Part shown: positions 4,227-59,200 of the stretch, in pieces | Layout: every line of letters begins with the position of its first letter | How positions within the stretch are numbered: the first letter of the stretch is position 1 | From: a virus | Taxonomy: Duplodnaviria; Caudoviricetes | Length of the DNA stretch: 64,000 bases | Reading direction: 5' to 3' (one strand) | IMG/VR virus record: IMGVR_UViG_3300032219_002765 | Span: 15,693 to 79,692 of that record | Position numbers and translations under genes: made by a program | Notes under the pieces: generated by a model | What the model was told of the DNA's origin: nothing | Databases searched by the model: none | The model's input: the letters and a program-made list of their open reading frames with translations, nothing else

Positions 4227-4895
4227 TTACTCAATAAGCAGGCCTGTTTCTATATTAACTAAACCTGTCCCAGAAAAATGCCCGAAGGAACTGATGTCCA
4301 ATTTCGGTGATTTTATAGAGCGCCACAAATGGACCATATTGTCAAATCGAATGTCGTCAATTAAAAGCCAACGAGGACGATTAAACGGTTTTAATCTTCT
4401 GCAAAGATGCAGGAAAGTTCGTTCAAACTCGTCATCTTTAGGTCCATCCAACATGATGAAATCTGCAGATTCAAGTAAATCTCTGTGTTTTTCAAATTCA
4501 GAAACATCTTTAAGATCCGAAAGATGTTGCGTAAGACGCCCGGAAATAAAATCTTGTTCGGCTAAAACAGTCCAATCAAAACTGCAATAATCGTATAAAT
4601 CAAAAGTACTTACAGTAGCTTCAGACTCACTGAAATCAAGCATTACTCTTGAAGAACATCCTCGGTAAGTACCAATATCAATTAACTTGTTTGGTTTTAA
4701 AGTTTTTACAAGACCAGCAAGAATGCGATAGTGCTCACCAGGAAAAATATTTGCGTACTCAAAATCAGGAATAATAGGTTCTGAAGCAGCAAACTTAATA
4801 GCTTCTGCAATCAACTCGTAATCTTTAAATTGTTGAGTAGCAAAGTCATCATCTAATGAGCAAAAAATGGACGGAATAACGTGACGAGCAATCAT
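4227..4895 (-). CDS. Class I SAM-dependent methyltransferase (Methyltransf_24-like, probable sugar O-methyltransferase)
   Basis: Motif I IDIGTYRGCS, plus FIMLDGPK and LLIDDI motifs. Confidence 0.8.
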   Translation of the reverse strand: MIARHVIPSIFCSLDDDFATQQFKDYELIAEAIKFAASEPIIPDFEYANIFPGEHYRILAGLVKTLKPNKLIDIGTYRGCSSRVMLDFSESEATVSTFDLYDYCSFDWTVLAEQDFISGRLTQHLSDLKDVSEFEKHRDLLESADFIMLDGPKDDEFERTFLHLCRRLKPFNRPRWLLIDDIRFDNMVHLWRSIKSPKLDISSFGHFSGTGLVNIETGLLIE

Positions 4896-4899
4896 AGAT

Positions 4900-4929
4900 A
4901 AAAAAAACCCCGTTCAATTATGAACGAGG
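4900..4929 (-). terminator. Intrinsic terminator after the scaffold gene
   Basis: Minus strand reads CCTCGTTCA-TAAT-TGAACGGGG followed by T8. Confidence 0.8.
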
Positions 4930-4963
4930 CTTCGTGGCTTTAGGGGCTAGTTACGAAACGTAA

Positions 4964-5878
4964 TCAGCTGGCATCCATGAACAAGAGCTTGCTGCGGAAC
5001 GCATCAGGACTCATTTGAGACAGATAACGCCAAGCTTGATCGGGGTTACGGTTCATGGTGTCCGTAAAACCGTTCCACTGGGTGTCGCTGTTTGCAGCAG
5101 GAGCACCAGCCATAGCCGAAGCAGGAACAGCGGGAAGCTGATCGTAACGGGGCTGATAAGATTGCTGCTCGCTGACATCAGCATCAACAGGATACACTTC
5201 GGTAAAGAACCGATTGGTGTAATCAGCAAGTTGATCGGGGTTTGTCAGAATCTGCTCCATGGCGGCGCCACGAGAGACAGCTGCATCAAGCACTTCATGC
5301 TGAGCAATCAGTGCATCTTCAAGAACAACAGAGTACTGGTTAAGGATTCCAGGAGCGTCAATACCGAAGTGATTAACGACGGCGACGGTTTCTGGGCTTA
5401 ACTGGGCTTTGGACTGCTGCTCCGTAGAAGTCGGATAAGAAGTCTGGGTTGTAGACTCGTTGTTGTACGAGGTCGGCTGAGCCGTAGGAGCCTGGTACAG
5501 ATAAGGCTGGGCCTGTAAACTCTGACTGTAAAGTTGAGTATCCTGCGGTGCCGTTTGATACTGCGGATACTGTGCTGCCTGGCTGGGGGACGGGGAGATC
5601 CGAGAAACCACCCGTTCCAAACTGCCCATCGCTGCTTCCCACGGGTTGGACGGGGAGGACGTTGACGGAAACTGGTTGTACTGGTTGCTGGTAGAAGGGA
5701 CCGTACCCTGTGTTGCCTGCGACGGCGCTTGCGGCATAGTTGCCGAAGGTGCCACCTGGGTATTGGCTACCCACTGGGGGTAGGCTGTTGAGCCCTGGTC
5801 TGCCGATGGAGCCGCCGAAGGGGCCGCTACCGCCGGGGATGCCGGGCTCGGGATCGAAGCTGGGATCTGCTGGCTCAT
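4964..5878 (-). CDS. Putative capsid scaffolding protein
   Basis: Disordered Q/P/S/A-rich N-half, helical acidic middle and short C-terminal helix; lies between portal and MCP. Confidence 0.6.
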   Translation of the reverse strand: MSQQIPASIPSPASPAVAAPSAAPSADQGSTAYPQWVANTQVAPSATMPQAPSQATQGTVPSTSNQYNQFPSTSSPSNPWEAAMGSLERVVSRISPSPSQAAQYPQYQTAPQDTQLYSQSLQAQPYLYQAPTAQPTSYNNESTTQTSYPTSTEQQSKAQLSPETVAVVNHFGIDAPGILNQYSVVLEDALIAQHEVLDAAVSRGAAMEQILTNPDQLADYTNRFFTEVYPVDADVSEQQSYQPRYDQLPAVPASAMAGAPAANSDTQWNGFTDTMNRNPDQAWRYLSQMSPDAFRSKLLFMDAS

Positions 5879-7607
5879 AGCTGCCCGAGTAAGTCAGTTC
5901 TTGCGCAAGGTGGTCAAACGTCCTATAAAGCAAGGGCGTTATGTTTAGCCGAGGGTCAGCCGCAAGCGGTTGATTCGGCGCAAGTGGATGTGGCGCTTGC
6001 AACATCTGATTTAATAATAATAGAAATTGTTGCATTGCGCCCTGTGTTTGCTGAATCATTCGGAAAGGAAATCCTTTCAACATCTCAGCACGCTCTGTAT
6101 CAGTTTTATCGGGGAATAAATATTTCAGAGCTTCGATGCTATCCACACCGAGTTCTTGGAGGTTTCGAACGACAATAGATTTCTGGTTAATGTCGTACGC
6201 CGTATCCTCATAAACATCCCCTTGGAACCGATAAGAAACCTCACGATCTCCGTCAGAAGGTAAGCCATAAACCCCGTTCGGGACTTTGTTTTGCTGCAAC
6301 GCAGACACCATTGCCGCGTCAATTTCGGTTTCGTATTTATTTATTTTTTTCTGGTATTTCTCTTGTGCTTCTTGAGTATTTTCTTTGGGCGGTTTGGGAG
6401 CTTCAAACCCCATTACCTGTATAAAACTTTCGCGGAAAATTTGTTCTTGATGGAAAATAATCATCTCCAACAAGCGACAAAAACCGTACGAAAGAAAACT
6501 TTTATTTTTACGAAGGGCCGTAGCTTGAGCCCGACCCATTAGACCTTTAATCTCCGTTGCAGTGGCACCTGCCGAAATAGAAATTTCGTCGACACCCCCT
6601 AACGCAGTACGTATTTCCTCTCTTAGCAAGAGCGAATAACGATTCATGTCCCCGTTAACCGGGTCGGGCGTCATATAGCCCACGCGGTCTGACGGCTCCA
6701 CGTTGGCAATAACGCGAGGCACACGCAGTCCGCCCATCAATGCGCTTGAACCAAAAGGTTCAGAAACACGAGTAGACGGAGTATCTCGTCCGCTAAATCC
6801 GCTTTGACTACTAATTGTGGGACGGAAAGTCCGATCAGAATCCGCAGCTTCGACAAGATCGCTGCGTGGTCGGGAACTGATCAGAGTGGGGTTACCAAAA
6901 AATTCAATATTTTTAGCAATATTCTGCATCATGCTGTCATGCAGCACGATTTGTTCCATGAAGGGTTCAAATTCCCCTTCCCCTTCCGTTCCGCTACTGT
7001 TTGGTTTATTTAAAACTTCAACAGCGGGAATAAAACCAAGTTCGTTTTTACGGCTATTTTTTGGAGTTAAAACAGTGCCTGGTTCTAACTCAAAACTAAG
7101 TTCACTGTTAGATTCAAACTCATTAATCTTATCTACAGTTATTGAAATACGAACGTAGCGTTTATTTTGCCCATAAGTATCGGCAGGCAACCCTAAAGTA
7201 GAATTTCTAACTTTATAACTGTAAATAATTACAACTTCTTCAATCTCACCGTTTACGTCGTGGTAAACACGGTACTGATGCTTCGAAAAAAAGTAAATTT
7301 GGTATTTTAATTTAGGATCAGGGCGAAAGTAAAATAAACCGCACCCGTCTATTAAAAAATTACGAATAATACTTGGAAAACGAATATCAATTTTGTTTAA
7401 AGACATCAAAGAGTCAATAAACTTATTCCTAGCTTTATAAGTATCCTGTTCGCAATAAAAAAGAACGCCTTTTTTAATCATAAGCAGCGTCATCTGCTGC
7501 AAATGGCTCAAAACCACCAGGGTGGCAGATTGTTTGCTTCGATCTTGCGTGCGAGAAGCTTCAAGAATCTCGCTAAAACGCTGACGAATGCTTAAATTGT
7601 CTGCCAT
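5373..7607 (-). CDS. Portal protein with a long G/P-rich C-terminal extension overlapping the scaffold gene
   Basis: 744 aa. The first ~575 aa are largely helical/globular and sit between TerL and scaffold/MCP; the last ~168 codons overlap 4964..5878 in another frame. Confidence 0.75.
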   Translation of the reverse strand: MADNLSIRQRFSEILEASRTQDRSKQSATLVVLSHLQQMTLLMIKKGVLFYCEQDTYKARNKFIDSLMSLNKIDIRFPSIIRNFLIDGCGLFYFRPDPKLKYQIYFFSKHQYRVYHDVNGEIEEVVIIYSYKVRNSTLGLPADTYGQNKRYVRISITVDKINEFESNSELSFELEPGTVLTPKNSRKNELGFIPAVEVLNKPNSSGTEGEGEFEPFMEQIVLHDSMMQNIAKNIEFFGNPTLISSRPRSDLVEAADSDRTFRPTISSQSGFSGRDTPSTRVSEPFGSSALMGGLRVPRVIANVEPSDRVGYMTPDPVNGDMNRYSLLLREEIRTALGGVDEISISAGATATEIKGLMGRAQATALRKNKSFLSYGFCRLLEMIIFHQEQIFRESFIQVMGFEAPKPPKENTQEAQEKYQKKINKYETEIDAAMVSALQQNKVPNGVYGLPSDGDREVSYRFQGDVYEDTAYDINQKSIVVRNLQELGVDSIEALKYLFPDKTDTERAEMLKGFPFRMIQQTQGAMQQFLLLLNQMLQAPHPLAPNQPLAADPRLNITPLLYRTFDHLAQELTYSGSYEPADPSFDPEPGIPGGSGPFGGSIGRPGLNSLPPVGSQYPGGTFGNYAASAVAGNTGYGPFYQQPVQPVSVNVLPVQPVGSSDGQFGTGGFSDLPVPQPGSTVSAVSNGTAGYSTLQSEFTGPALSVPGSYGSADLVQQRVYNPDFLSDFYGAAVQSPVKPRNRRRR

Positions 7608-7637: not shown

Positions 7638-7811
7638 TTACTTGCCCGAGTTTTCTTTATCAGCGCTACGTTTTACTTTAGCTTTTTTAGCCTTACGAAG
7701 AGCTTCGATCCGAGCCATTTTTTTGCTTTTGTCATCAGTTTCGCCGTTTTTACCGGTCTCTTCCTTTTTTTTGAAACGTTCCAGTAATTCCTTAGGCATT
7801 TGATTGGCCAT
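7638..7811 (-). CDS. Small Lys-rich basic protein (57 aa)
   Basis: Not in the ORF track. Hand translation: MANQMPKELLERFKKKEETGKNG...KRSADKENSGK*. It fills the gap before the portal gene. Confidence 0.7.
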   Translation of the reverse strand: MANQMPKELLERFKKKEETGKNGETDDKSKKMARIEALRKAKKAKVKRSADKENSGK

Positions 7812-8646
7812 TTGGCAGTAAATAGTTCTTTACTCGCTCTAGTTTAAACAGTTCTGGCGGTAAAAGCTCATGTGGGTACTGTTCCAGAATGTGATCTGCA
7901 CGACCTAGAGGATCTGTACCGCCTGCTGTTGCTTTATAAGCTTCTAAATGAGTTAACATTTCGTCGCTGTAGGCCGGAGCAACTGCATTCGGGATGTCAT
8001 CGAAACAATGAGAAAACGAAGTTACTTTACGCTTCATTCGCTCAGCATCTCCCATCCACGAAAAATGCCACCCGGCATCGCAGTCACCTAGAACAATGTC
8101 ATTCGGATTCATACGAATCTGAGAAGGAGTTTTTTCTAAATGTTCTGCTAGAACAACAGTTCCACAAGTCCAGTTATCTGGAGCTTTTGTCCCATCTCCT
8201 AAGGGATCTCGCACACGTAAATCAGCTCGACCATAAAACATTGGCATAGACAGACGCACACAGCGATCACGATGTGCTTGAGCTAAATCAACAGCTTCTA
8301 AAAGACGATCTGGTTTAGGAATTTCATCAACATCGCTGAAGAAAAATACTGAATCAGGTGGACACATCCTCATTCCGACACCTAAAGCATCCCTCTGTGC
8401 GTGTTCTCTTGACCAGGGAATGGAGCACTCCTCCACCGTGGGAAGCTCAACATGAAGAACTTGAATTTTTTCCTCGGGAAGTCCTAGCTCTCTAATTGTT
8501 TCTAAACACGTAAAAGGTTTAGGATCGCCACGAAACGTCCGATTACCGTCTGTAATAATAAAAGCATCAACTATATCTTTTAGAATATTAATACGCAGCT
8601 CTAGTAGCTCCTTTTCATCAAAATATAAAAAGCAGTCAAACAGCAC
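7792..8646 (-). CDS. Glycosyltransferase family 17-like (GnT-III/MGAT3-like)
   Basis: FDCFLYFDEKELLELR...TFRGDPKP, EHAQRD, FSDVDEIP and GWHFSW motifs are typical of GT17. Confidence 0.85.
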   Translation of the reverse strand: MLFDCFLYFDEKELLELRINILKDIVDAFIITDGNRTFRGDPKPFTCLETIRELGLPEEKIQVLHVELPTVEECSIPWSREHAQRDALGVGMRMCPPDSVFFFSDVDEIPKPDRLLEAVDLAQAHRDRCVRLSMPMFYGRADLRVRDPLGDGTKAPDNWTCGTVVLAEHLEKTPSQIRMNPNDIVLGDCDAGWHFSWMGDAERMKRKVTSFSHCFDDIPNAVAPAYSDEMLTHLEAYKATAGGTDPLGRADHILEQYPHELLPPELFKLERVKNYLLPNGQSNA

Positions 8647-8672
8647 GGAACTTTATTTCGACTGTCAGTATA

Positions 8673-9002
8673 TTAGCTCATCACGGCGGGGTTAGAACCG
8701 CCACCAGCACGAATGTTTACGCTCCCATTAGAAGGTCGATTTTGCTGCTTGTTTTTTGCAGACTCAATTAACTGACGTTTAACAGCTTCCAAATTATATG
8801 TATCTGATTCTGTTGCCGGGGCTGTACCTGTCTGAGGAGGAACAGCTCCACTCATGTAAGAATTGTCATCCTGCGAATCAAATTGATCCTCTTCCATAAA
8901 AGGACCGTCATAACGAATTTGATTATTTGAAGCAGAGGTCATAGCACCATAAGCTTTGCCAAAAAATTGACTAGCTTGGTCATAAGGAGATGCGAGGCCC
9001 AT
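8673..9002 (-). CDS. Hypothetical protein
   Basis: 109-aa co-oriented ORF. Confidence 0.6.
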   Translation of the reverse strand: MGLASPYDQASQFFGKAYGAMTSASNNQIRYDGPFMEEDQFDSQDDNSYMSGAVPPQTGTAPATESDTYNLEAVKRQLIESAKNKQQNRPSNGSVNIRAGGGSNPAVMS

Positions 9003-9046
9003 AAATCTGTTTATTTATTTACTAATAATAAACTGTAAAAGTAGTA

Positions 9047-9253
9047 TCAATCCATAATTTTATTAGCTATGAGAGCTTTGCTAATAAGGGCATCTTTTGT
9101 TTCATCAAGCAATTGCTGCATAAGCAAATATTGATCATTAGAAGAACTAGATAATTCTTGAGCAAAATCTGAAGACTCAGGTAATGCCCTTGAACGCCAA
9201 GTGGGGCGAGATGGTTTACCACCAAGTGATGTTAAAAGCGTAGTTAAGTCCAT
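9047..9253 (-). CDS. Hypothetical protein
   Basis: 68-aa co-oriented ORF. Confidence 0.55.
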   Translation of the reverse strand: MDLTTLLTSLGGKPSRPTWRSRALPESSDFAQELSSSSNDQYLLMQQLLDETKDALISKALIANKIMD

Positions 9254-9282
9254 AAAAAAACAGATTTGTAACTAGTCTACAT

Positions 9283-9501
9283 TTATTTTTTTAAGTTTTG
9301 TTCGATGTACTTAGAAGCTTTCCTACGAGCTTCCTTAGCTTTTTCTGTATTTTGAACCCGAGTTCCCACGGGTTTTGAACCTGAGGTAGCTTTTTTCTTA
9401 ATTTCGTCGGTTTCACGACGTTCTTCAGGCGTTAATGCAGCCCAAGCAGCCCGAGGTAAATAACGTTCGGTTCGACCTTTTTCGCGAGCTAAGTCAGCCA
9501 T
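9283..9501 (-). CDS. Basic protein resembling the C-terminal half of DUF5872-type proteins
   Basis: ERYLPRAAWAALTPEERRETDEIKKK...VQNTEKAK motif. Confidence 0.65.
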   Translation of the reverse strand: MADLAREKGRTERYLPRAAWAALTPEERRETDEIKKKATSGSKPVGTRVQNTEKAKEARRKASKYIEQNLKK

Positions 9502-10266: not shown

Positions 10267-10729
10267 GCCTATGGCAATTCGAGCATAGTATACGGCACTT
10301 TGCTATTTCAGCATAAATTTTGTCGATGTTTCGACAAAGAAGTTTAGAAACGTCAAATAACTTTGTTGTTTGAATTTTATGAGCAAAGTCAAGAGCACAA
10401 GGATGTTCTTTGTATCCACATCGCTCACAACCTTTTTGCATTTTTATAAAATTTAAAATCTGTCGTCTTTCCTTATATTTGGTTTTATTGCTACTAGCAA
10501 TGGCTGCTTTAGATATTTTTTCAAAATTTTTATGAGCTTGAGGAGATAACCAACTTTCTTTGTAAAAACCATTTTCTAATATTTTAGATTTTTCATAAGT
10601 TCGAAATATATAACCGTCTTCACGTATATCTCCTTTTTTATAGGGAACTTGCGTTTCAGAATTTAATCGTTTTTTTGGATCATAAGTTCCTAAATAATTC
10701 TTACATTTAATAAACTTCATAAAACTCAA
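10235..10729 (-). CDS. HNH homing endonuclease
   Basis: CERCG...LDFAH...KCRILCSNCHR; AT-rich, overlaps both neighbours. Confidence 0.8.
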   Translation of the reverse strand: MSFMKFIKCKNYLGTYDPKKRLNSETQVPYKKGDIREDGYIFRTYEKSKILENGFYKESWLSPQAHKNFEKISKAAIASSNKTKYKERRQILNFIKMQKGCERCGYKEHPCALDFAHKIQTTKLFDVSKLLCRNIDKIYAEIAKCRILCSNCHRLETHGVISFD

Positions 10730-11649
10730 AAAACTAACATTTCCTCAACGGATAATAAGTCACCATGCTGCTCTTTTAAGCGAGCAGAGTACTTATTGTC
10801 GTCGTGTTGAATCAAACCGCAATCTAAAATTTTATAAATTCCATTATCTCCAACAACAGGAACACATCTTCGATGCTCGTGGTTAGGTGGGGGATTTTCA
10901 AAAGCAAGTCCCATGGAACTTCGATCAGCTATAGGCCAATTTCTAATTCCCGTTTTTATATAACTTTTTTCGGGATCGTAACTATCCGATCGAATATAAG
11001 TTTCCCCATCACGTTGATCCAAAATCATCCCGCAGTAATAAGGGCTTCCTAACTGCACAAAAAAATCAATTTCAAAATCAACAACCAATAATTTGGGAAC
11101 TGTAAAACCAATGTTATGCCAAACATTAGGTGTTTCTTTTGTCAAATACCATTTTTCGTAATTGCCAATGGGGATACGTTTATTGTCAAAATTTTCAAAC
11201 AATGCAAAACCCGGCTCTAAGTTGTAGCGGCTTAAAACAGGTTTCCACTTCATAAAATAATCAAAATTATCCCGACGAATCAAAACATCGTTTTCTTGAT
11301 AAATATAAAAATCTGCCTGCCTATTAAGGATGGCAAGCGCAAGATCGGTTTTATGCGCCCAAGTCAAATACCAATTTTGGTATTCAGGCGACGCTACTTT
11401 GACGTTAATTTTTAACTTATCGAACTGCTCAAGCACCGATTCCAGTGTCGGTACGTCTTCTTGAGCTTCGTAATTAACGTAAATATTAACACAGATTTCA
11501 TGCGGAAATTTTTGATACTCGTTTAGAACATTGATTAAAGAATTTAATCGTTGCAAGGGGTTATGGGCAGTAATTGCAACCCAAATTTTCTTAGACATAT
11601 CGCGAGGCTCGGCAGTGCCGAGAGACTGTTCGAACTTTAGTTGTTCCAC
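10726..11649 (-). CDS. Putative GT-A-fold glycosyltransferase-like protein
   Basis: N-terminal beta-alpha unit KIWVAITAH and DFYIYQENDVLI (EDD/DxD-like) motif. Confidence 0.5.
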   Translation of the reverse strand: MEQLKFEQSLGTAEPRDMSKKIWVAITAHNPLQRLNSLINVLNEYQKFPHEICVNIYVNYEAQEDVPTLESVLEQFDKLKINVKVASPEYQNWYLTWAHKTDLALAILNRQADFYIYQENDVLIRRDNFDYFMKWKPVLSRYNLEPGFALFENFDNKRIPIGNYEKWYLTKETPNVWHNIGFTVPKLLVVDFEIDFFVQLGSPYYCGMILDQRDGETYIRSDSYDPEKSYIKTGIRNWPIADRSSMGLAFENPPPNHEHRRCVPVVGDNGIYKILDCGLIQHDDNKYSARLKEQHGDLLSVEEMLVF

Positions 11650-11659: not shown

Positions 11660-13180
11660 TCAATACTCCACTGAAAACTGTCCTCTTCGTTGCAAATATT
11701 GAATCAGCCAGGTGTAAGCGTCCAGGAGGTCATCGTGTGACGTAGCCCCGACGTTGATCAACTGGTCAAACAAAGCGTCAAATTTTCGGTATTTATTGAA
11801 CGTGATTTTCTTGTTTTCTAGCAAACCTAAAGTCCCACGAAAGCGGGCAATTTTGTCGCCCCTAAAACCTTTAACTTCATGAATATGAAGATTGCCTAGT
11901 TCACGCTCGTTTACCAGAACCCGTCTTAAGTCAGCTGCCAGTGAAGCTTGGTACGCAACCGATTCAACAACCAAGGTAATAGTTGAATACGTCGGCAAAA
12001 ACGTACCGTCGTGATTTGTCAGAATTCCCCACTCCAACAACATATCGCACAGCAAATCAATCTTCTCTAAGTTTCCAATCGAGCGACACTGGTGCGCATC
12101 GATGATGTAATACTTGTCCTTCAGCCGTCCACCTAAAACAAACGCGGTGTAGTCACTCGTTTCGTTCTTACTTGCCGAGAGGTCAATGCCCACGGCTAAG
12201 GTGTCGAATTCGGTTACCACTTCGCCTTTAATCAACAGATCTGGCGACACAACCAGATCCGAAGTCATAACAGGTTGCTGCTGATACTGGAACGCAAACG
12301 CAACAGGATCAAGTTCTTTCTGACCTAGTAAGTACTCGACCGACCACTGAGCGGGCCAATAACTAACAGGCTCGCCCATGTTGTTGTAGGTAATGGCTTC
12401 CTGCGTAACTTGTTTCCAGCCTTTTTCAGGCACGAACATTGTTTTGTGGATATCCAAAGGATGAAATCGAGTACCCAGGCAAATTGAACGTCCGCCTTCA
12501 AAGATAATCGGCGCGATAACGGATGACCAGTTGTTGTTCATCTCTTCCCGAATGGTCGGGTTTTTAATGTCCGCGCTGGATTTAATAGGGTCATCCACGA
12601 TGACCAAGTGGGCGCGTTTAGAGGTAATAGAGCCCCGAAGGCCCGCAGCCCTGAGCGTAAATTCTTCGTCACCCACCCGTGGAATGCCGGCGTAGTCGAA
12701 GTCAATCGACCAACCGATATCCGACTGCATCCCTGCTTTTAGCTTGACCTTAGGGAAGATCTTGCGGTACTCAGGAGAGTCAATAATCTGTCTAATAATG
12801 CGACTTTTCGGAATAGCCGTAGCAATGTTGTACGAAACATAAATAATCTGCAACGGCATCTTAGCCGTCGTATGCCGCCCAATAATCCATGCAGTAAACA
12901 GGTTTAGTACAGTGCTCTTAGCGCTACCCCTAGGAGCAAGAATATCTAGGTTAGGTCCCGCTATGTCAATTAGATATTTATTTGATTCACCTGTTATCAA
13001 ATGGCTGTACCACTCCAACATATGTTTCTGAGGAGCTTTGTCAAGCAGCGTACAGAACGTATGAAAATCGCTGGTAGCTTTGGAGTATATAGTATCTACT
13101 ACAGTAGAAGTATCGTCAATAGCCCGAGCTGCTCGTAATTGTGCGCCACGGCGATATGCGAAAGTTTCTTTGCTAGGCAT
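11660..13180 (-). CDS. terL: Terminase large subunit
   Basis: Walker A APRGSAKST, Walker B LVIVDDP, and RNase H-like nuclease motifs IDLSAS..SDYTA and HDDLLDA. Confidence 0.92.
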   Translation of the reverse strand: MPSKETFAYRRGAQLRAARAIDDTSTVVDTIYSKATSDFHTFCTLLDKAPQKHMLEWYSHLITGESNKYLIDIAGPNLDILAPRGSAKSTVLNLFTAWIIGRHTTAKMPLQIIYVSYNIATAIPKSRIIRQIIDSPEYRKIFPKVKLKAGMQSDIGWSIDFDYAGIPRVGDEEFTLRAAGLRGSITSKRAHLVIVDDPIKSSADIKNPTIREEMNNNWSSVIAPIIFEGGRSICLGTRFHPLDIHKTMFVPEKGWKQVTQEAITYNNMGEPVSYWPAQWSVEYLLGQKELDPVAFAFQYQQQPVMTSDLVVSPDLLIKGEVVTEFDTLAVGIDLSASKNETSDYTAFVLGGRLKDKYYIIDAHQCRSIGNLEKIDLLCDMLLEWGILTNHDGTFLPTYSTITLVVESVAYQASLAADLRRVLVNERELGNLHIHEVKGFRGDKIARFRGTLGLLENKKITFNKYRKFDALFDQLINVGATSHDDLLDAYTWLIQYLQRRGQFSVEY

Positions 13181-13199: not shown

Positions 13200-13208
13200 C
13201 GCTATATT
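13200..13208 (+). promoter_or_regulatory. CGC-TANNNT promoter-like -10 element (back-to-back with CGA-TACTGT on the minus strand at 13194-13202)
   Basis: CGCTATATT ends 26 nt before the GT4 start codon; the same motif recurs before many genes. Confidence 0.55.
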
Positions 13209-13234: not shown

Positions 13235-14407
13235 ATGGCTAAAATTCTTTGGTACGGCGACGCATGTTGTAATACAGGTTTTGCTCGTGTAACTCATAGT
13301 GTTCTAGAGCATCTGGCAAAAGAGCACGAAGTACACGTACTGGCAATTAACTACAGCGGCGACCCGCATGATTATCCGTTTAAAGCGTATCCGGCAGCGA
13401 ACGTACACTGCGGCGATCGTTTCGGTATTCCGCGTTTACCAGAACTCTTAAACAAAATTAAACCAGATGTCTTTATATGTCTGCAAGACATTTGGGTTTG
13501 TAATCAAGTGTGGGAACGATGCCAGTTCCTAAAAGACGAGTTGAAATTTAAATTCATCTGCTATTTCCCAATCGATAGCGAGATGTATTACAGCGATATG
13601 CTGCGCAACATTCCTGCGTGGGATATGGCGATTACCTTCACCATTAACTCCGCTCACAGGATCCTCAAGCACGGGATTAAAGCTGAACGACTAGGAGTTC
13701 TGCCTCACGGAGTAGATACGGGCAAATTTACGCCAATGGACCGAGGCGAAGCCCGCGATGCCCTAGGTCTGCCAAAGGATAAATTTATTGTCCTAAACGC
13801 CAATCGCAACCAACCGCGAAAACGGATTGATTTAACAATTCAGACATTCGCCAAATTTGCAGCGGATAAACCTGACACCATGCTCTACCTACACATGGGA
13901 GCAAAGGATATGGGTTGGGATGTCGTACCGTTGTTTGATCGCGAAATGAAAAAATACGATTTAGATAGTGCCAAACGATTAATCCTTACATCAAAAGATA
14001 TCAACTATATGGATGCTCCTTCTGACGAATTGTTAAACAAAATTTATAACAGTTGTGATGCCGGCATTAATACGGCAGATGGAGAAGGTTGGGGTTTAGT
14101 TCCTTTCGAACACGCAAGTTGCCGCAAACCTCAAGTAGTTCCGAATCACACAGCTTGTGCTGACATCTGGGAAGAAGCTGCTCTCTTGGTTGATATTGCC
14201 ACGTGGGTAACTGATAAAGATCTTGGTGTCGAACGCGGTTTAATCAACGTGAATCACGCTGTTGAGATGCTTAACAGACTGTATTACGACAAAGAGTTTT
14301 ACGACGAAATAGCTGATTGCTGCTACGCCGTAACTCAGCGTCCGGAATACCGCTGGGAAAACGTGGCTGCGGGCTTCTCGCAAGCCATTAAAGATTTAAT
14401 GGAGTGA
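13235..14407 (+). CDS. Glycosyltransferase family 4-like (GT-B)
   Basis: TGFARV, LPHGVD, NRNQPRKR and EGWGLVPFE motifs. Confidence 0.9.
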   Translation: MAKILWYGDACCNTGFARVTHSVLEHLAKEHEVHVLAINYSGDPHDYPFKAYPAANVHCGDRFGIPRLPELLNKIKPDVFICLQDIWVCNQVWERCQFLKDELKFKFICYFPIDSEMYYSDMLRNIPAWDMAITFTINSAHRILKHGIKAERLGVLPHGVDTGKFTPMDRGEARDALGLPKDKFIVLNANRNQPRKRIDLTIQTFAKFAADKPDTMLYLHMGAKDMGWDVVPLFDREMKKYDLDSAKRLILTSKDINYMDAPSDELLNKIYNSCDAGINTADGEGWGLVPFEHASCRKPQVVPNHTACADIWEEAALLVDIATWVTDKDLGVERGLINVNHAVEMLNRLYYDKEFYDEIADCCYAVTQRPEYRWENVAAGFSQAIKDLME

Positions 14408-14411: not shown

Positions 14412-15491
14412 ATGCAAACAACACATCGTTTTTATCACGCTCACAGCCAAGTACTTTTTCCTTTGCGAGTTCCTCAGGAAGGAATTCCTGACGTATACGA
14501 GCAAGCTCGCGCTCTAAATGGCGAATTTACTCGAATCTCAAAAGGTCTTCCGGAAGGTGCTGTAGCTAATTTCAGTCCATCAATTCAAAAACACAAAGGA
14601 AAAACTTACATCGCGTGGAGGTCACAAGCCGAACCATTTGGTTTTAAATACGACAATAATTATTTTTATCTGAATAATTCTCCCACAGAGATTTATATTG
14701 GAATTTTGCGGGACGATGACACTATTGTTGGAGCTAAAAAACTTCGGTCTAAACCTCACCGATTAAGTTACGAGGATCCCCGTCTTTTTGTGGGACCCGA
14801 TGACGAACTTTACGTGCAGTTTGTTGGGTCTACTTACGCAAGCCGATACAACAAAGGCGGCAAAAAATTATTCGACGATCCGAAAATTGTTGTTGCTTAT
14901 ATTGATGAGTTTTGCGAAGCAACTAATGCTGTAGTTCCGCCAATTGGAAAAAACAGGCAAAAGGGATCACCGGAAAAAAATTGGTGTTTCTTCAGCCATA
15001 AAGATGAACTGCGGTGCTTGTACTCAACCCGACCTATAACCATTGAGAGGGAAAACGGCAAAGCTATCGAGATTGATTCGTCAATCCTGGACGAAGTTAC
15101 GGGCGGCGCACCAACGTTTAATTCGCTAGCACCTATTAATCTAGGTTACGCTTATTTAACTTTTTATCACTGGAAACATACAGTATGTGACCGTAACGGT
15201 CAGTACTATCTGATATATCATCTAAGTGCTTATTTAATGGATAAAACTTTTACTAAGATTACCCACGCGGTGAGGAGACCTTTGTTCTCTGGTTCGTTAA
15301 ATGATCAACTTATTAGCTGGACTGATTATGTGGGAAACCCCGTATCGAAACAACCAGCTGTAATCCTACCTTTTGGTGCTTATATAGAAAGCACTAATTT
15401 AGTTATGGCTCTAGGTGTTAACGATGCGTTTATGGGTATCTTCCGTTGCCCATTAGAAGCCGTTATGCGGGAAATGCAGCCAGTCGACTAA
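14412..15491 (+). CDS. Five-bladed beta-propeller glycoside phosphorylase/transferase (GH130/GT91/GT108-like)
   Basis: YEDPRLF and EKNWCFF motifs, repeated beta-blade pattern, terminal ALGVND. Confidence 0.65.
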   Translation: MQTTHRFYHAHSQVLFPLRVPQEGIPDVYEQARALNGEFTRISKGLPEGAVANFSPSIQKHKGKTYIAWRSQAEPFGFKYDNNYFYLNNSPTEIYIGILRDDDTIVGAKKLRSKPHRLSYEDPRLFVGPDDELYVQFVGSTYASRYNKGGKKLFDDPKIVVAYIDEFCEATNAVVPPIGKNRQKGSPEKNWCFFSHKDELRCLYSTRPITIERENGKAIEIDSSILDEVTGGAPTFNSLAPINLGYAYLTFYHWKHTVCDRNGQYYLIYHLSAYLMDKTFTKITHAVRRPLFSGSLNDQLISWTDYVGNPVSKQPAVILPFGAYIESTNLVMALGVNDAFMGIFRCPLEAVMREMQPVD

Positions 15492-16018
15492 GACTTCTCT
15501 TCACGTTCAAGCGTGGACCATACCAGCAATGCAGAATCATCTAATAGATTTTGTATTGCTGGTTGACCGTCAAAAGTCTGCATTAACTCCCGAAGGCAAC
15601 GGTCCGCACCAGCTAATAAAAGCCCGCGTCGATCAAGACCATCTGAAATAGCTCGAACAGCTTGAATATGGGAACGAAGTTCTTTCTGTAGCGAAGCAAT
15701 TTTTGTTGCAGCTGTTGCGTAATCCAACATCCCCGTGGTCGTCATTTGACGCACGTTTTGAATATCTTGATTTAATCCGTCAATCTCACAAAGAAGAATT
15801 TTACGTAAATCCTCTTTAGGATATTTTTCTTGTATCCACGCAGTAATATCCGAAATACTGCCGGTGTACGACGGTTTTAAAAACCTAGCGTATAAATACG
15901 CCTCAATATCACTTGTAGCATTCTTAGCGTAATAAACAAAAGAATCTTTTTGCGATTTTTCTAAACTGGCTAGCCAACCTGCAACGGTTGCAGAGGTGCC
16001 GATTTCAGACTGAATCAT
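15488..16018 (-). CDS. Hypothetical helical protein (possible terminase small subunit)
   Basis: 176 aa, helical/coiled-coil. The TerS role is a guess from size and module context only. Confidence 0.55.
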   Translation of the reverse strand: MIQSEIGTSATVAGWLASLEKSQKDSFVYYAKNATSDIEAYLYARFLKPSYTGSISDITAWIQEKYPKEDLRKILLCEIDGLNQDIQNVRQMTTTGMLDYATAATKIASLQKELRSHIQAVRAISDGLDRRGLLLAGADRCLRELMQTFDGQPAIQNLLDDSALLVWSTLEREEKS

Positions 16019-27104: not shown

Positions 27105-27105
27105 A

Positions 27106-36736: not shown

Positions 36737-36966
36737 TGAAACGCTTACTGTACACAATCGAATCGACCAAAGGTTTCTTAGCAGACATTGAACGTTACAC
36801 AGATAACATTTTAGATGCTGTAACTTTTGTTGATTTTGATAATGCAGCTCATCGACTTGCGCAAGTGAACGATTTGCTGGTCGAACCATGCTGGATTGTG
36901 GCTAAGTATGTACCTTTCCCAAGGCCAATTGCGGTTTGTTTAAACACTCATTCTTCCCAAAAATGA
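36736..36966 (+). CDS. Hypothetical protein
   Basis: Coupled on both sides. Confidence 0.65.
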   Translation: MKRLLYTIESTKGFLADIERYTDNILDAVTFVDFDNAAHRLAQVNDLLVEPCWIVAKYVPFPRPIAVCLNTHSSQK

Positions 36967-38153: not shown

Positions 38154-38157
38154 TCAA

Positions 38158-53699: not shown

Positions 53700-54190
53700 T
53701 TTCCTTTCTGTAGTTTAGCTTTAGATAAAGCTAAAAGATTATTTGCCATGTTATGTGAATTTGAAAGATAATCCATATTAGCTGTACGTGTATTTAAAAA
53801 GTTTTGATTGGCAACAGCAAGAGCTTGACGCATCCGCATACGTTGCTCAGGAGTTTCTTGCTTCATCGACAGCAAATAATCAGCCTGACTCATGTCATCA
53901 GGACTGTCTTTAATCGGGACATTGCGTTGGTTATAACCAGCAACACCAGTTAACTCAGTGCTTTTTTTAATATTTCCTTCTGCGTATTCGACTGGTCCCA
54001 CGGGGGGACGGCTGTAAGAACCTCGATCATGTTCAATCTGCGAAGCAATGCGGCTGGCATTATCCAACTGCATCACACGGCGCACACCTAACTGAGGTTC
54101 GCGGTTGTATCCCCCCAAACCAGGAGGAAACATCAATCCCCCTATTTGTTCGGGAGCTTTACCGTTCCCAGTTCCAGGCACAATTGCCAT
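53696..54190 (-). CDS. Hypothetical protein
   Basis: 164-aa coupled ORF. Confidence 0.65.
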   Translation of the reverse strand: MAIVPGTGNGKAPEQIGGLMFPPGLGGYNREPQLGVRRVMQLDNASRIASQIEHDRGSYSRPPVGPVEYAEGNIKKSTELTGVAGYNQRNVPIKDSPDDMSQADYLLSMKQETPEQRMRMRQALAVANQNFLNTRTANMDYLSNSHNMANNLLALSKAKLQKGK

Positions 54191-54414
54191 TATTGATCGC
54201 TCCGATTAGCGGACTTAGATCTAACCCTTATGTTAGCAGGACTATTATCTAAAGGATTATGGTTTTTGTGATCCACATCTTTTCCGTCACCTTTGTGAAC
54301 TTTGCCTTTTTTTGCTAAATGACGGCGAGCTTGATTTCGAGCAGCGCGACGTTTAATCTGCTCAGGCGAACCGTGATAATCTTCGTATTCTTTTTTGTAA
54401 TCACGATCCGCCAT
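54190..54414 (-). CDS. Small basic HNH protein
   Basis: RDYKKEY...RAARNQARR...GDGKDVDHK.....DNS..N.RV.SKSANRS. Confidence 0.8.
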   Translation of the reverse strand: MADRDYKKEYEDYHGSPEQIKRRAARNQARRHLAKKGKVHKGDGKDVDHKNHNPLDNSPANIRVRSKSANRSDQ

Positions 54415-54428
54415 AAATTTATAAACTT

Positions 54429-54662
54429 TTAACTAATTGTAGGCGAAGGAAATAGCCACGGTTTGCCGTGTCGTGGATCTGCCGATTTAATTCGGTCATA
54501 ATCTCGAACAAACTCCGCAAGATCTTGTTCATACTGTTGAAATAACCCCGTATAACAACAGTTTTCAGGTGTGTAAAACTCATAAAGTTCCTCCATAAAA
54601 TCTATTTTTCTCTGTTCCCAGTTTACGTCCCAGGTGGAAAGGATAGCCTGATGGTCAAACAT
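54429..54662 (-). CDS. Hypothetical protein
   Basis: FMEELYE.Y......YTGLFQ pattern recalled from cyanophages. Confidence 0.6.
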   Translation of the reverse strand: MFDHQAILSTWDVNWEQRKIDFMEELYEFYTPENCCYTGLFQQYEQDLAEFVRDYDRIKSADPRHGKPWLFPSPTIS

Positions 54663-54683
54663 AAACAGAAGTTTGTAAAGAAA

Positions 54684-54899
54684 CTAAAAGAGCTGAAACA
54701 AGTCATCCAAAAGGGCACAAATAAGCGCACTGCGATACGCCATCATTCGTGCAAGTTCTCTGGTTTCTAAATCCCCTAAAGGATTAGAGTCCTCATCCCA
54801 ATTGAATGTTTTTTCATCCGCTCGTTGCTGAGCGCAACGCTCTATATTCTGCCAGTCAACTGTAAGTGCTTGCTTTACAAGTTTTTTGCGACTAGTCAT
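54684..54899 (-). CDS. Hypothetical protein
   Basis: ATGA-coupled to the endolysin. Confidence 0.6.
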   Translation of the reverse strand: MTSRKKLVKQALTVDWQNIERCAQQRADEKTFNWDEDSNPLGDLETRELARMMAYRSALICALLDDLFQLF

Positions 54900-56143
54900 T
54901 TTAAAGCTTTAATAAACCAACCAGAGCTTTCTCCCTCAACCATCCAGCGAGGTTTTAAGTTCAATTTAGAGTATAACTTTTTAGCGCCATTTGTGCTGAG
55001 GTATCCTCCGTTAATAAGATCTAAATCGCCAAACGGATCATTAACTACATAACTTTTATTATCTTCAGAACGCCCAATGACACAAATCCAGTGACCGCCC
55101 CCGGTTGGGCTCGTCACAGATCCTTTATGAAGAATCCCAATAGGGACCGCGATTCCTTTATCTAGTTGAGCGTCAATATCCTTCCACGAGCCTTTTTGAC
55201 AAAATTCGGCTCTGACTCCGTAATCTTCTAGAGCTTCTAACTGTGCTGCTGCTGACGTAGTGTCGCCATGTTTAAACACAGTTGCTATATATTTATCATC
55301 GTTATCAATGCTGTTGGGTTTTAATCCCTTAAGCATCATGGCGCAAGAGCTAGAAAAACAAGTCCGCAAAGGATCACGGACGTTATCTCGCTGAGAATAA
55401 TAAGGAATATTTAAAACTTTTTCGACAGGAACTGATGGAGAAGATTCTTGTGGGACAGATAAAGATTTGGGATCGTTAATAATCTTCCAATGGCTGGGGT
55501 AAAGCCACCAGTCTTGATCGGGTTGAGACTCAAGCCGAATCCTGTAGTCGACTTCTCCGGGAACCATTGTGATTGTACGCCACTCATGGGCAGCTCCCTT
55601 AGGGACAAAGACTTTTTCTTCAGCAGAAAGAGTGGTAGCTTGCTCAGGCTTACGTTTTAGCCACGTATCCTGTTTTGCCAAGATTGAAGTAGCCAAGAGC
55701 GGATGTACAGCTTTGGTTAAAAATAACTCTTTTTCTCGCCGACGGCGGTTTGCGAGACCTTCGTTAACATTTCCATTAACTTTAGTCCACTTTAACAGCT
55801 CTGACGCAACTATACAGCGATCAACGTCATCATTTAGCAACTTTAACAACGTTGATTGTTTAAACGCATTAACCCCAACATTATATGTAAAACTTACTAA
55901 AGCATCAAATTCACTCTGACTAACTCTAAGTTTAATTAATTCTGAAACTGAGCTTTCAAAATACTGCAAAGTACGCAGAAGAAATTCTTCCGCTTGCTCT
56001 TTACTGATTGTTAGACCAGGGCCAATCTGGGCACCCGTGGTGCCGTATCCTATAGTCCAGACTCCGGCTTCGCATTGGTACGAAGTTAAGCGCAGACCTT
56101 CAAAACTTTTAATTAAATTGACCCCCGCAGGGGAAATTTTCAT
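54896..56143 (-). CDS. Endolysin: GH24 lysozyme + SH3-like linker + C39-like cysteine peptidase
   Basis: IKSFEGLRL..YQCEAGVWTIGYG and GLANRRRREKELF (GH24); PYYSQRD..RTCFSSSCAM and GGGHW (C39-like); start moved to MKISP. Confidence 0.88.
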   Translation of the reverse strand: MKISPAGVNLIKSFEGLRLTSYQCEAGVWTIGYGTTGAQIGPGLTISKEQAEEFLLRTLQYFESSVSELIKLRVSQSEFDALVSFTYNVGVNAFKQSTLLKLLNDDVDRCIVASELLKWTKVNGNVNEGLANRRRREKELFLTKAVHPLLATSILAKQDTWLKRKPEQATTLSAEEKVFVPKGAAHEWRTITMVPGEVDYRIRLESQPDQDWWLYPSHWKIINDPKSLSVPQESSPSVPVEKVLNIPYYSQRDNVRDPLRTCFSSSCAMMLKGLKPNSIDNDDKYIATVFKHGDTTSAAAQLEALEDYGVRAEFCQKGSWKDIDAQLDKGIAVPIGILHKGSVTSPTGGGHWICVIGRSEDNKSYVVNDPFGDLDLINGGYLSTNGAKKLYSKLNLKPRWMVEGESSGWFIKALK

Positions 56144-56580
56144 TAGGTGCTCGTAACGCAAATACCGACTCGGTACTCACAACCACTACGGCCTTTAAGT
56201 TGAATATAAGTGTAATAAGTGCCCGAAGTATTAATAGTGGTTGTAGTAGTGGAAGTTGCTCTTGTACTAAATTTAGACGGATTAGCGGTCAGAACTTCAG
56301 TACCAGCCGAGTTAAGAACAACAACAGGACCGCAAGAATTTTGATTACGAATATCAACGCGCAGAATACCTGTTGCGTTAACAGTTAATTTGTAAACATC
56401 TGAAATACCATATATGCCGTCGGCTGCATACTCGCGGTTTTCGGATGTAACTACAACCACGCCGCTGGAATCTAGTGTTCGGCGTTGATCAAAGTGAGTG
56501 GACTCCGTGCGACGGGTAGGATCCGTGATACCGCTGTTAATGACGGAATCCAGTTCAAGGTTTTTTGTGTACTGGGCCAC
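56143..56580 (-). CDS. Beta-sandwich (PPC-like) protein
   Basis: DVYKLTV...G.LRVDI...SGTYYTYIQ...CEYRV pattern. Confidence 0.55.
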   Translation of the reverse strand: MAQYTKNLELDSVINSGITDPTRRTESTHFDQRRTLDSSGVVVVTSENREYAADGIYGISDVYKLTVNATGILRVDIRNQNSCGPVVVLNSAGTEVLTANPSKFSTRATSTTTTTINTSGTYYTYIQLKGRSGCEYRVGICVTST

Positions 56581-56688
56581 GCCGATACAATCATTCGATA
56601 CTTATATTTTAATCAGAAAATACGTTATGTTTACGTCTTAAAATCAATTAAAATTTATTTAGCTAATCAGGGGTACAGAATTGTGGGT

Positions 56689-57467: not shown

Positions 57468-57854
57468 TTATTGCAAGTGTGCTGGGAGCTTTAAAGGTTC
57501 CTGGCACGCTTTCGCGTATTCACGTGCCGCAACACTGGATTCATGGTTATAACTTAACCATTCCCAAATTGCTAGTTCGCGATCTTCGTTCCAAAACGTC
57601 TGAGATCGAAACCAGAGCAGCCAATCCGCGTCTGATTTTGCCAAGTTACAAGTAGGGCAGCACGCTAAAAGATTGTCTCTTTTTGTTGAGCCGCCTTTAG
57701 CTCTAGGTATTATATGATCTAATGTATGTGCTCGATCGGAACCGCAATACGCACACAAATTTTCCCACGCATCAAGAATATCTTTCCTAAATCTCTTTCG
57801 GGCAGTTCGACGTTGTAAACACTGAAGATTAAAAACTAAATCCGACTCGCTCAC
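57468..57854 (-). CDS. HNH endonuclease (McrA-like, short)
   Basis: CAYCG..TLDHIIPRAKGG..RDNLLACCPTCNLAK. Confidence 0.88.
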   Translation of the reverse strand: MSESDLVFNLQCLQRRTARKRFRKDILDAWENLCAYCGSDRAHTLDHIIPRAKGGSTKRDNLLACCPTCNLAKSDADWLLWFRSQTFWNEDRELAIWEWLSYNHESSVAAREYAKACQEPLKLPAHLQ

Positions 57855-57884
57855 AAAAAGTGTGCGGGGTTGTCTTTATTTTAG

Positions 57885-58250
57885 CTAAGTAATCTGTTTG
57901 CTTAACAATTTTGGTGATGTACGTTGAATAAATGAAATGTGATGTCCCTCTGAATCAAAGCATTCGGCCAAGTATTTACACGCTTTCTCTGGATCGGTTG
58001 TTTCACCGCAAGTGAAGGCATCTACAGCGGCAAATTCACATTCCGGCCAAGTGTGTATGCTGATGTGGGATTCAGCTAACAAGGCAAATCCCGTAATACC
58101 TTGAGGAGAAAATACGTGAGTACGAACTTCAAGTAAAGTCGCACCTGCAATTTCAGCAGCTTCAATCAGCGCTTGTCGGACAAAAGCTTCATCATTGAGT
58201 TTATCCGAGTTGCCGCGATAAAGTTCTAAAACGCAGTGCTTACAATCCAA
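57885..58250 (-). CDS. speD: S-adenosylmethionine decarboxylase proenzyme
   Basis: [28 protein letters not shown] and DAFTCG; intact ES self-cleavage site. Confidence 0.92.
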
Positions 58251-58318
58251 CGAAGTTGCTCAGAAACCCTATTAATTTTACGTGACTAGCGCTAATCTGA
58301 GTTACTTTCTAAACGAAC

Positions 58319-59200
58319 ATGAGTAAGGTATCCGTCCAGTGGCTTACACAAGATAAAGATTTATTTGAGTTTGATTGGTTAACATCTTTATTAGAAGGAA
58401 CTACAGATCAAGTTTTAGTAGCCGATAATGTATCACAGTTACAACTAGATAAAAAAGTACTTTTGATATGTAACCATGCGGTTCCTTACCGACCGTTTTT
58501 AGACGCACTTAGGCAAAACAATAGTTCATATGGAATAATTCTTTTGTCTGATGAAAATTTATTAGAGCCATGCGAATGGCTGCATGACCCAGCGTGTAAG
58601 TTTTTGTTTCGAAATTATTTACACCCACTTTATATTCGGCACCCAAAAGTAACTGTGTTTGGACTTGGCTACAAACGTAATTTTCTGACACATTGTTTGA
58701 CAATCCCGGTTGAAGAGCGCTCTACCTTATGGAGCTTTGCGGGAACTCCTCACGGTGAAAGAAGCGCAGTATTAGATCTGTTTAAAGATTTAAAACCTAA
58801 CGAAGTACACGCATGTTCTGGCTTTGGAGCAGACGACGGAATCTCGACGGAAGATTATGTATCAATGTTAAACGACAGTCAATTTGCCCTATGTCTGCTT
58901 GGTCAGGAAAGTGCAGACACATTTCGCTTATATGAAGCTTTAGAAGCTGGTTGTATTCCAGTAACTATAAATAGGTCAAATCAGTTCGACATCCGGCCTT
59001 CGTACTGGCACGGTGTTTTTTACGGGGAGACAGATTTACCTTTTATTGCCGAAGATAGTTGGGAGAAAGCTAAAGAAAAAATGATTCACATTATTGAAAA
59101 TAATGAAACTGCAGCGGTTCAAAAGAACTGCACAGAGTTTTGGAACAAATGGAAAACTGTGTGGCGCACACAGCTTCATCATAATTTTTCAAAAATATAA
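58319..59200 (+). CDS. Exostosin/GT47-like glycosyltransferase
   Basis: WSFAG...R, Y...L..SQFALCLLG...TFRLYEALEAGCIPV. Confidence 0.8.
   Translation: MSKVSVQWLTQDKDLFEFDWLTSLLEGTTDQVLVADNVSQLQLDKKVLLICNHAVPYRPFLDALRQNNSSYGIILLSDENLLEPCEWLHDPACKFLFRNYLHPLYIRHPKVTVFGLGYKRNFLTHCLTIPVEERSTLWSFAGTPHGERSAVLDLFKDLKPNEVHACSGFGADDGISTEDYVSMLNDSQFALCLLGQESADTFRLYEALEAGCIPVTINRSNQFDIRPSYWHGVFYGETDLPFIAEDSWEKAKEKMIHIIENNETAAVQKNCTEFWNKWKTVWRTQLHHNFSKI

Follow-up and report, generated by a model that had tools for sequence, protein, structure and literature searches.

We describe herein a 64,000-nucleotide stretch of viral DNA (the window), that is, bases 15693-79692 of the IMG/VR record IMGVR_UViG_3300032219_002765, a genome of 79,692 bp that CheckV rates as 99% complete. 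Judged from its sequence, the phage is an uncultured cyanophage of the sister clade to S-EIV1 (a Synechococcus phage, KJ410740), the sole isolate related to it by portal (42% identity); a megablast of 20 kb against a phage collection gave no match. Scattered through the window are genes for glycan enzymes, seven of which (GT17, GT-A, GT4, GH130-like, GT2, FkbM, and GT47-like; GT, glycosyltransferase; GH, glycoside hydrolase) form a core that is syntenic in every related contig reaching their positions. We propose, with a probability of about 0.5, that these genes make up a clade-defining, cytoplasmic, phage-encoded toolkit for glycan assembly, which would put a glycan on virion proteins.

Family calls were based on Pfam gathering scores and NCBIfam cut-offs. 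A search with the portal retrieved 368 related IMG/VR stretches, the best 80 of which were examined, and a search with the S-EIV1 portal retrieved at least 597 contigs, 80 of which were examined. Three long relatives, G001-G003 (two complete genomes of 86 and 82 kb and one 84%-complete genome), were compared over their whole length. Structures of the GT-A protein and of a beta-propeller protein are AlphaFold (AF2) models built from alignments of 18 relatives and compared by VIA and Foldseek; pLDDT is the model confidence.

An earlier note on this DNA had named nine glycan-building enzymes, and an open reading frame (ORF) is present at each of their coordinates, as follows.

4227-4895, minus strand: probable class I S-adenosylmethionine (SAM) methyltransferase, accessory; Methyltransf_24, 23.2 bits against a threshold of 26.3, E 1.4e-4; between the scaffold-like gene and gene e
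7792-8646, minus strand: GT17-like, core; PF04724, 59.8 bits against 26, E 3e-16; directly upstream of the portal gene
10726-11649, minus strand: predicted GT-A-fold glycosyltransferase, core; AF2 model, pLDDT 84; directly downstream of TerL
13235-14407, plus strand: GT4 (GT-B), core; Pfam Glyco_transf_4, 31.4 bits, and Glycos_transf_1, 36.4 bits, both above cut-off
14412-15491, plus strand: predicted GH130-type five-bladed propeller, core; AF2 model, pLDDT 80, and Foldseek
19729-20496, minus strand: GT2, core; PF00535, 27.9 bits against 23.3; heads a long minus-strand operon
20541-21242, plus strand: FkbM methyltransferase, near-core; PF05050, 51.4 bits, and TIGR01444, 71.7 bits; divergent from GT2
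22030-22905, minus strand: RmlD, dTDP-4-dehydrorhamnose reductase, accessory; Pfam, 271 bits, and equivalog TIGR01214, 265 bits against 224
58319-59200, plus strand: GT47/exostosin-like, core, fast-evolving; PF03016, 47.4 bits against 33.4, and RXYLT1_C, 31.6 bits

Eight of these nine proved to be real glycan enzymes, six by scores over curated thresholds and two by predicted fold only, and the families assigned to them previously were essentially right; the methyltransferase at 4227 is the one that stays under its Pfam threshold. Two of the matches cover part of a family profile. Residues 2-114 of the GT17-like protein align to positions 75-189 of the 348 in PF04724 (MGAT3-type), and this protein had no NCBIfam match and nothing meaningful among PDB sequences. 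The GT47-like protein, whose gene lies at the edge of the variable tail-fiber region, matches positions 159-261 of the 293 in PF03016; when PDB sequences were searched with it by phmmer, the only match, to exostosin-1, was marginal (E 0.06), and A075L did not come up. In NCBIfam, GT4 is most similar to two small-molecule transferases, MshA and mannosylglucosylglycerate synthase, at scores far under cut-off.

The protein at 10726-11649 had no Pfam, NCBIfam, PHROG, or PDB sequence match, and its assignment comes from the model. VIA aligned the model to SpsA, the glycosyltransferase domain of LH3, WrtF, and RmlT, with a Z of 11.5 and root-mean-square deviations of 3.6-4.0 over 195-208 residues (1h7l, 8one, and 9omm), and all 392 Foldseek matches at E<=1e-3 were GT-A enzymes. 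A viral structure library likewise gave GT-A proteins, from both phages and giant viruses. A candidate for the DxD motif is the invariant E119-N120-D121, which in the model comes after a beta-strand, about where such a motif would be expected. The family has 233 homologs, all of them annotated as "hypothetical" and all on phage-sized contigs of <=87 kb. On its predicted fold, then, the protein is a lineage-specific phage family of GT-A type.

The propeller likewise had no Pfam match at E<=0.01 (PF04041 was not reached) and no PDB profile match. In Foldseek (E 1e-13 to 1e-8; TM 0.5-0.72), the first 44 ranks listed were all GH130 or Leishmania MPT chains, and the structural matches (7fir, 9erg, and 6q4x) include a beta-1,2-mannobiose phosphorylase, a mannoside synthase, and the GDP-mannose (GDP-Man)-dependent Leishmania MPT mannosyltransferases. 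Viral proteins make up 76-98% of its nearest Atlas clusters, and only 13-40% of the members carry PF04041. Invariant in the alignment are E121-D122-P123-R124 and several Arg, Lys, and His, among which may be the catalytic Asp and the basic phosphate-binding residues that distinguish phosphorylases, hydrolases, and transferases of this type. By predicted fold only, the protein resembles a beta-mannoside phosphorylase or mannosyltransferase (GH130/GT108).

With the exception of RmlD and FkbM, none of the enzymes reached a bacterial NCBIfam cut-off. This, together with the restriction of the GT-A family to phages, argues that the enzymes are old phage genes rather than recent host lipopolysaccharide (LPS) genes.

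All seven core genes are present and syntenic in G001-G003 at 48-81% identity, with GT2 at 76-81% and GT47 at 48-52%. GT17 occurs in 78 of 81 portal loci (median identity, 78%), GT4 is 68-96% identical in every locus that reaches it, and GT2 was found in 137 viral contigs; FkbM adjoins GT2 in 58 of 80 GT2 loci, and GT47 was recovered in 17 contigs at 47-54%. The ratio of nonsynonymous to synonymous substitution rates (dN/dS) against close relatives is 0.04 for GT17, GT-A, and GT4, 0.03 for the propeller, 0.02-0.05 for GT2, and 0.07-0.13 for FkbM; that of portal, TerL, and the major capsid protein (MCP) is 0.04-0.06. The core enzymes are thus under strong purifying selection comparable to that on structural genes. 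The earlier note had held that genes that are patchy and decaying across relatives would speak against a functional system, and since seven of the nine are syntenic in relatives with low dN/dS, this objection does not apply to them.

These genes are interleaved with structural genes, as had been claimed before; the landmarks among them were identified by PHROG and Pfam.

1982-3097, minus strand: MCP
5373-7607, minus strand: portal
11660-13180, minus strand: TerL (large terminase)
59602-61998, minus strand: tail-fiber or virion structural protein

In every locus that reaches these positions, the genes run l, k, propeller (antisense), GT4 (antisense), TerL, GT-A, i, (h), GT17, and portal, followed by the scaffold-like gene f, (the methyltransferase), e, MCP, c, b, and a. 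The block running from l and k through the propeller, GT4, TerL, GT-A, GT17, portal, and e to MCP is intact in every locus that spans it. The genes are dispersed, as the earlier note stated, and yet not all of them stand singly: GT4 and the propeller form a pair, and GT2, FkbM, a gene without assigned family, and RmlD are neighbors. GT2, GT-A, and GT17 point the same way as the genes for packaging and head; the GT4-propeller pair, FkbM, and GT47 are antisense. Gene k (15488-16018), which may encode the small terminase (TerS), is the immediate upstream neighbor of TerL in the S-EIV1 clade; here the antisense GT4-propeller cassette splits the pair, and the split arrangement is kept clade-wide.

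In this genome, GT17 and the portal gene are separated by a gap of only 185 bp. Some relatives have at that place an extra ORF of 292-369 amino acids (aa) without a Pfam family (L044:9103-9981, L024:1549-2625, and L021:8689-9798). Ten candidate ORFs from variable slots of relatives turned out to be LAGLIDADG endonucleases, a fiber chaperone domain, or nothing recognizable, and no extra glycan genes were found among them.

Several glycan genes had also been credited with promoters of their own and, by extension, with late co-expression with structural proteins. The element GCTANNNT is found upstream of 20 of 132 genes, against 4.1 expected, and is clustered at -27 to -34. In relatives whose proteins are only ~50-80% identical, it precedes GT17, GT4, FkbM, and GT47 with unchanged spacing, and it is most likely a real -10-type element (GC plus TAnnnT; GCTAnnnT). 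Three occurrences are the following.

8670-8677, minus strand: GCTAATAT, promoter-like -10 element before GT17; kept at -29 in G001-G003
13201-13208, plus strand: GCTATATT, promoter-like and itself preceded by TTGACA, before the GT4-propeller cassette; unchanged at -34 in G001-G003
58291-58298, plus strand: GCTAATCT, promoter-like element before GT47; match at -30 in G001 and G002

The conservation of these elements shows that the antisense glycan genes have putative promoters of their own. A conserved element before several glycan genes is accordingly upheld, and late co-expression is not. We considered GCTANNNT as a glycan-specific or late-specific signal and rejected it, as the element also precedes the primase gene and other replication and tail genes.

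The sister clade provides a contrast. All 80 S-EIV1-clade loci examined keep the order k-TerL-portal-MCP-c-b-a, and in none of the 80 does the head block contain GT17, GT-A, protein e, the methyltransferase, or the GT4-propeller cassette. S-EIV1 itself shares with our phage TerL (51% identity), portal (42%), MCP (68%), proteins a, b, c, and k, and primase. Of the glycan enzymes it has only a GT4 homolog of 40% identity, which is located elsewhere in its genome; GT2, FkbM, and GT47 have no homolog there, nor does protein e. This absence from all examined loci of the sister clade argues that the toolkit is a defining gain of the present clade, within an otherwise conserved packaging and head block.

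Two structural features appear to have been gained along with the enzymes, and these are our candidate acceptors.

1101-1964, minus strand: protein c, candidate acceptor; encoded just after MCP, with a Ser/Thr (S/T)-rich C-terminal tail
3180-3932, minus strand: protein e, 250 aa, candidate acceptor or decoration protein; S/T/Y/G-rich, between the scaffold-like gene and MCP

The tail of protein c is 8-10 residues long, with the pattern ES[SNT]x[YF]TSTxP[SA]; it was seen in 34 of 34 loci and in no homolog from the S-EIV1 clade. Its co-occurrence with the enzymes comes from a single clade contrast, and protein c is not a proven virion protein. The protein also has an internal S/T-rich insertion, and its sequence gave no link to solved structures. 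Protein e, with 22% S+T, is kept in 65 loci at ~65% identity (dN/dS, 0.04-0.07); it had no Pfam, PHROG, or PDB match and no homolog in S-EIV1 or the 80 S-EIV1-clade loci. MCP is without a C-terminal extension. The S/T-rich virion proteins that the earlier note had named as targets are indeed enriched in these residues, though only moderately (14-22% S+T).

Not all nine enzymes belong to the core. RmlD is absent from G001-G003, and just 4 or 5 of 80 GT2 loci have it, each time in the slot of FkbM and dCMP deaminase. In the close relative L101, RmlD (6001-6873) shows 77% identity to that of the window (22030-22905), and its flanking genes show 96-99%; the dS of RmlD, 0.86, is ~3-4 times that of the flanks (0.21-0.31), and its dN/dS is 0.16. 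The lower identity and higher dS of RmlD relative to its flanks indicate that a cassette was exchanged through recombination. Within the same slot, L101 has in addition a 537-aa ORF without a family (7673-9286). The methyltransferase at 4227 was found in 11 portal loci, and in a divergent subclade its homolog stands directly after GT2, with or without FkbM; a copy of the GT47-like gene is also near GT2 in nine loci. Taken together, these patterns show RmlD and the second methyltransferase to be swappable accessories.

The earlier note had gone further and spoken of a complete pathway for an O-methylated, rhamnose-containing glycan. The genome lacks RmlC (PF00908), and among its larger ORFs Pfam revealed no NTP-transferase or dehydratase that could be RmlA or RmlB; the one search of genome contigs with RmlD for a host clue, which reaches close relatives only, gave nothing but a 35% match in a Neisseriaceae metagenome-assembled genome. 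Because RmlD is missing from most relatives, and because the methyltransferase at 4227 is an accessory of 11 loci as well as under threshold, the genome gives no support to a complete methyl-rhamnose pathway. The pattern looks instead like a core glycan, which would be made from host nucleotide sugars, with rhamnose and some of the methylation added as strain-level decorations.

How, then, might the enzymes act? All nine lack signal peptides and membrane or hydrophobic segments, the highest Kyte-Doolittle mean over 19 residues being 1.45. Soluble enzymes of this kind would draw on host nucleotide sugars (GDP-Man, UDP-sugars, and dTDP-rhamnose where RmlD is present) and, late in infection, would assemble a short oligosaccharide directly on virion proteins in the cytoplasm, with methylation capping it in some strains. 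Acceptors might be the S/T-rich tail of protein c, protein e, and the tail fibers encoded next to GT47, and the glycan would form an outer coat of the particle that protects it, alters adsorption, or gives it a strain-specific surface chemistry. Consistent with virion glycosylation are the gene positions, the solubility of the enzymes, the missing export genes, and the S/T-rich structural features gained with the set. An independent case of the GT17-like family in a head module comes from the unrelated actinophage GMA2 of Gordonia, where a GT17-like ORF (L098:3971-4774; 24% identity over 214 aa) lies directly after the terminase and a 573-aa ORF in the portal position. What had been proposed earlier thus stands with respect to a real, dispersed, multi-enzyme toolkit in the morphogenesis module; the virion as its target is what we infer. 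In its fuller form, the proposal is that these phages of picocyanobacteria, a clade spread worldwide, use seven core enzymes to build a complex hetero-oligosaccharide, with mannose and in some strains methyl groups or rhamnose, on their own capsid, their fiber proteins, or both. We put this forward tentatively, as a little less probable than an even chance.

Several points weigh against glycosylation of the virion. The S/T enrichment of the named targets is modest. The co-gain of protein e and the protein c tail is one evolutionary contrast between clades that differ in most genes. The promoter element also stands before replication genes and so does not establish late timing. Transferases for LPS and O-antigen, too, look soluble from their sequences, and might pass their products to host exporters. 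The main rival is remodeling of the host envelope. It holds that the soluble transferases extend or alter lipid-linked intermediates of host LPS, O-antigen, or exopolysaccharide, which a host flippase or ABC transporter would export, thereby blocking superinfection or keeping progeny from adsorbing to debris. GT4 and the FkbM-type methyltransferase do resemble ABC-transporter-dependent polymannan O-antigen synthesis with methyl capping, of which WbdA-D of Escherichia coli O8/O9a are an example. RmlD is a classic enzyme of the O-antigen pathway, and the turnover of RmlD and the methyltransferases looks like serotype diversification. Moreover, GT17, GH130, and Rml genes occur in the LPS-type islands of T4-like cyanophages, where GT17 and GH130 are usually read as host-surface genes (PMC12801897). 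Pfam scans, however, turned up no initiating polyprenyl-phosphate transferase, flippase, polymerase, or ABC exporter or other transporter. These are core genes that keep their order within the block for packaging and head and do not lie in a hypervariable island, the enzymes are far from bacterial equivalogs, with a GT-A family confined to phages, and there is little time to rebuild an envelope late in a lytic cycle. On balance we regard envelope remodeling as rather unlikely.

Two further destinations appear less probable still. The enzymes might make some other cytoplasmic product, such as a soluble oligosaccharide or glycoconjugate (a mannoside store or a compatible solute), or glycosylate host proteins to take over metabolism, with the GH130-like enzyme serving as a catabolic phosphorylase. 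GH130 enzymes are mostly phosphorylases that release mannose-1-phosphate, and the small-molecule transferases closest to GT4 in NCBIfam, though far under cut-off, point the same way. Such a product would account neither for the location of the genes in the morphogenesis block nor for the structural features that the clade gained alongside them; the set comes without sugar-nucleotide or transport genes, and five different transferases plus methylation suggest a defined hetero-oligosaccharide and not a storage polymer. We therefore think it improbable. Alternatively, the glycan could be placed on modified bases of the phage DNA as a defense against restriction, as in T-even phages and others whose hydroxymethyl-pyrimidines are glycosylated. 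GT2 and FkbM adjoin a conserved dCMP deaminase, the replication module has several proteins without assignable function, and there are phages that encode several DNA glycosyltransferases (Pyle et al. 2024, via PMC12619734). A thymidylate-synthase-family hydroxymethylase (PF00303) and ThyX (PF02511) are nevertheless both absent from the 99%-complete genome, with control genomes positive, and T-even-type DNA glycosylation is for that reason unlikely. Most of the enzymes are also in the head and packaging module, not the nucleotide-metabolism module, and seven enzymes that include a GH130 propeller and a methyltransferase exceed known DNA glycan systems. DNA hypermodification is in our estimation the least probable destination, and a very improbable one.

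If the virion is the target, the toolkit has partial precedents. To our knowledge, a few mycobacteriophages are the only phages whose own enzymes have been shown to glycosylate the virion; the other demonstrated cases are giant viruses of eukaryotes. The mycobacteriophages described by Freeman and colleagues in 2023 reportedly O-glycosylate their virions and encode, in some cases, an O-methyltransferase as well. Che8, Corndog, and Myrna (via PMC12619734 and PMC11256854) are, like the present phage, tailed phages that encode their own glycosyltransferases. According to the account in PMC12619734, their glycans are on C-termini of capsid and tail-tube proteins, in C-terminal extensions to which the clade-specific S/T-rich tail of protein c may be compared. 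Here, too, transferase genes are within or beside the structural operon. As those accounts describe them, the mycobacteriophages have two to four enzymes in one cassette, whereas the present clade has seven dispersed core enzymes, of GT17, GT47-like, GH130-like, and lineage-specific GT-A type, together with a cyanobacterial host and an MCP without an extension.

The capsid glycans of chloroviruses are made by soluble virus glycosyltransferases and two O-methyltransferases (PMC9614988). PBCV-1 (A064R, A061L, A075L, and A111/114R; PMC9614988 and PMC11571054) resembles the present system in having mostly soluble, cytoplasmic transferases without signal peptides, a mixture of GT-A and GT-B enzymes that is dispersed rather than in one operon, strain-level glycan variation, and methyltransferases, which in PBCV-1 O-methylate a terminal rhamnose. 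PBCV-1 is, on the other hand, a eukaryotic giant virus with N-linked glycans on its major capsid protein; we found no sequence relationship to the enzymes here in the phmmer search of PDB sequences with the GT47-like protein, and function is biochemically shown there and inferred here. The LPS or cell-wall islands of T4-like cyanophages (S-H68, S-SCSM2R, and P-SSM2; PMC12801897) belong to phages of the same host group and contain GT17, GT2, GT4, GH130 "MGP", Rml enzymes, and epimerases. Unlike the present genes, which are scattered in a core morphogenesis block clade-wide with the accessory RmlD as the only nucleotide-sugar gene, these islands are large and contiguous, carry nucleotide-sugar synthesis genes, and lie in variable genome regions; their GT17 is only 24% identical to ours. 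The toolkit differs from known virus-encoded glycosylation in enzyme families, enzyme number, dispersed core-gene layout, and host group. Our literature search found no paper linking S-EIV1-like phages with glycosylation, and no reported phage-virion role for GT17-like, GT47-like, or GH130-like enzymes.

A whole clade of abundant aquatic phages, represented by hundreds of IMG/VR contigs, thus keeps seven glycan enzymes as core genes of its morphogenesis module, and the sister S-EIV1 group is on record from both lakes or other fresh waters and the sea (10.1101/655167; PMC5332604). If the virion is indeed glycosylated, glycan-coated particles could be common in plankton, with consequences for adsorption, decay, grazing, and particle stickiness, and for how "auxiliary" sugar genes of phages are read. 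The system would then be a bacteriophage counterpart of chlorovirus capsid glycosylation, and its swappable methyltransferase and RmlD modules would yield strain-specific virion "serotypes". The sister clade without these genes offers a natural comparison, there are two defined candidate acceptors, and the swappable decorators, RmlD and two methyltransferases, predict glycan differences between strains.

Several minor features of the genome were also observed. A family-A DNA polymerase, a primase, and an endolysin were identified in the window (PHROG/Pfam). The portal frame and the scaffold-like ORF (4964-5878) overlap by ~500 nucleotides in different frames (5373-5878), and the C-terminal 170 residues of the portal are G/P/S-rich and end in a basic KPRNRRRR. 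The TerL match starts ~1.5 kb after GT4 in some relatives (L006, L055, L081, and L082, the last with an extra 300-aa ORF at 4547-5449), and the annotated TerL of S-EIV1 (54080-56620) measures 2541 bp versus 1521 bp here; these length differences point to a mobile insertion (an intein, intron, or homing endonuclease) in the terminase gene. In many relatives, ORFs for LAGLIDADG homing endonucleases are present beside or inside the MCP gene (L041:14802-15632 and L028:14271-15266), in a slot between gene e and MCP that is equivalent to window positions ~3100-3180. In such loci an additional ~1.1-1.8 kb separates gene e from the start of the MCP match, a sign that the capsid gene may contain an intron or intein.

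Elsewhere in the window, genes for tRNA-Leu(TAA) and tRNA-Met(CAT) are adjacent on the minus strand (27020-27181). A 528-aa DUF4214-domain protein (43840-45426) is encoded after the DNA polymerase genes and is absent in all three long relatives. The replication block starts at 36936-39708 with an ATPase (phrog_19600) followed by a 524-aa VWA-domain protein, a pair that relatives keep at 64-77% identity.

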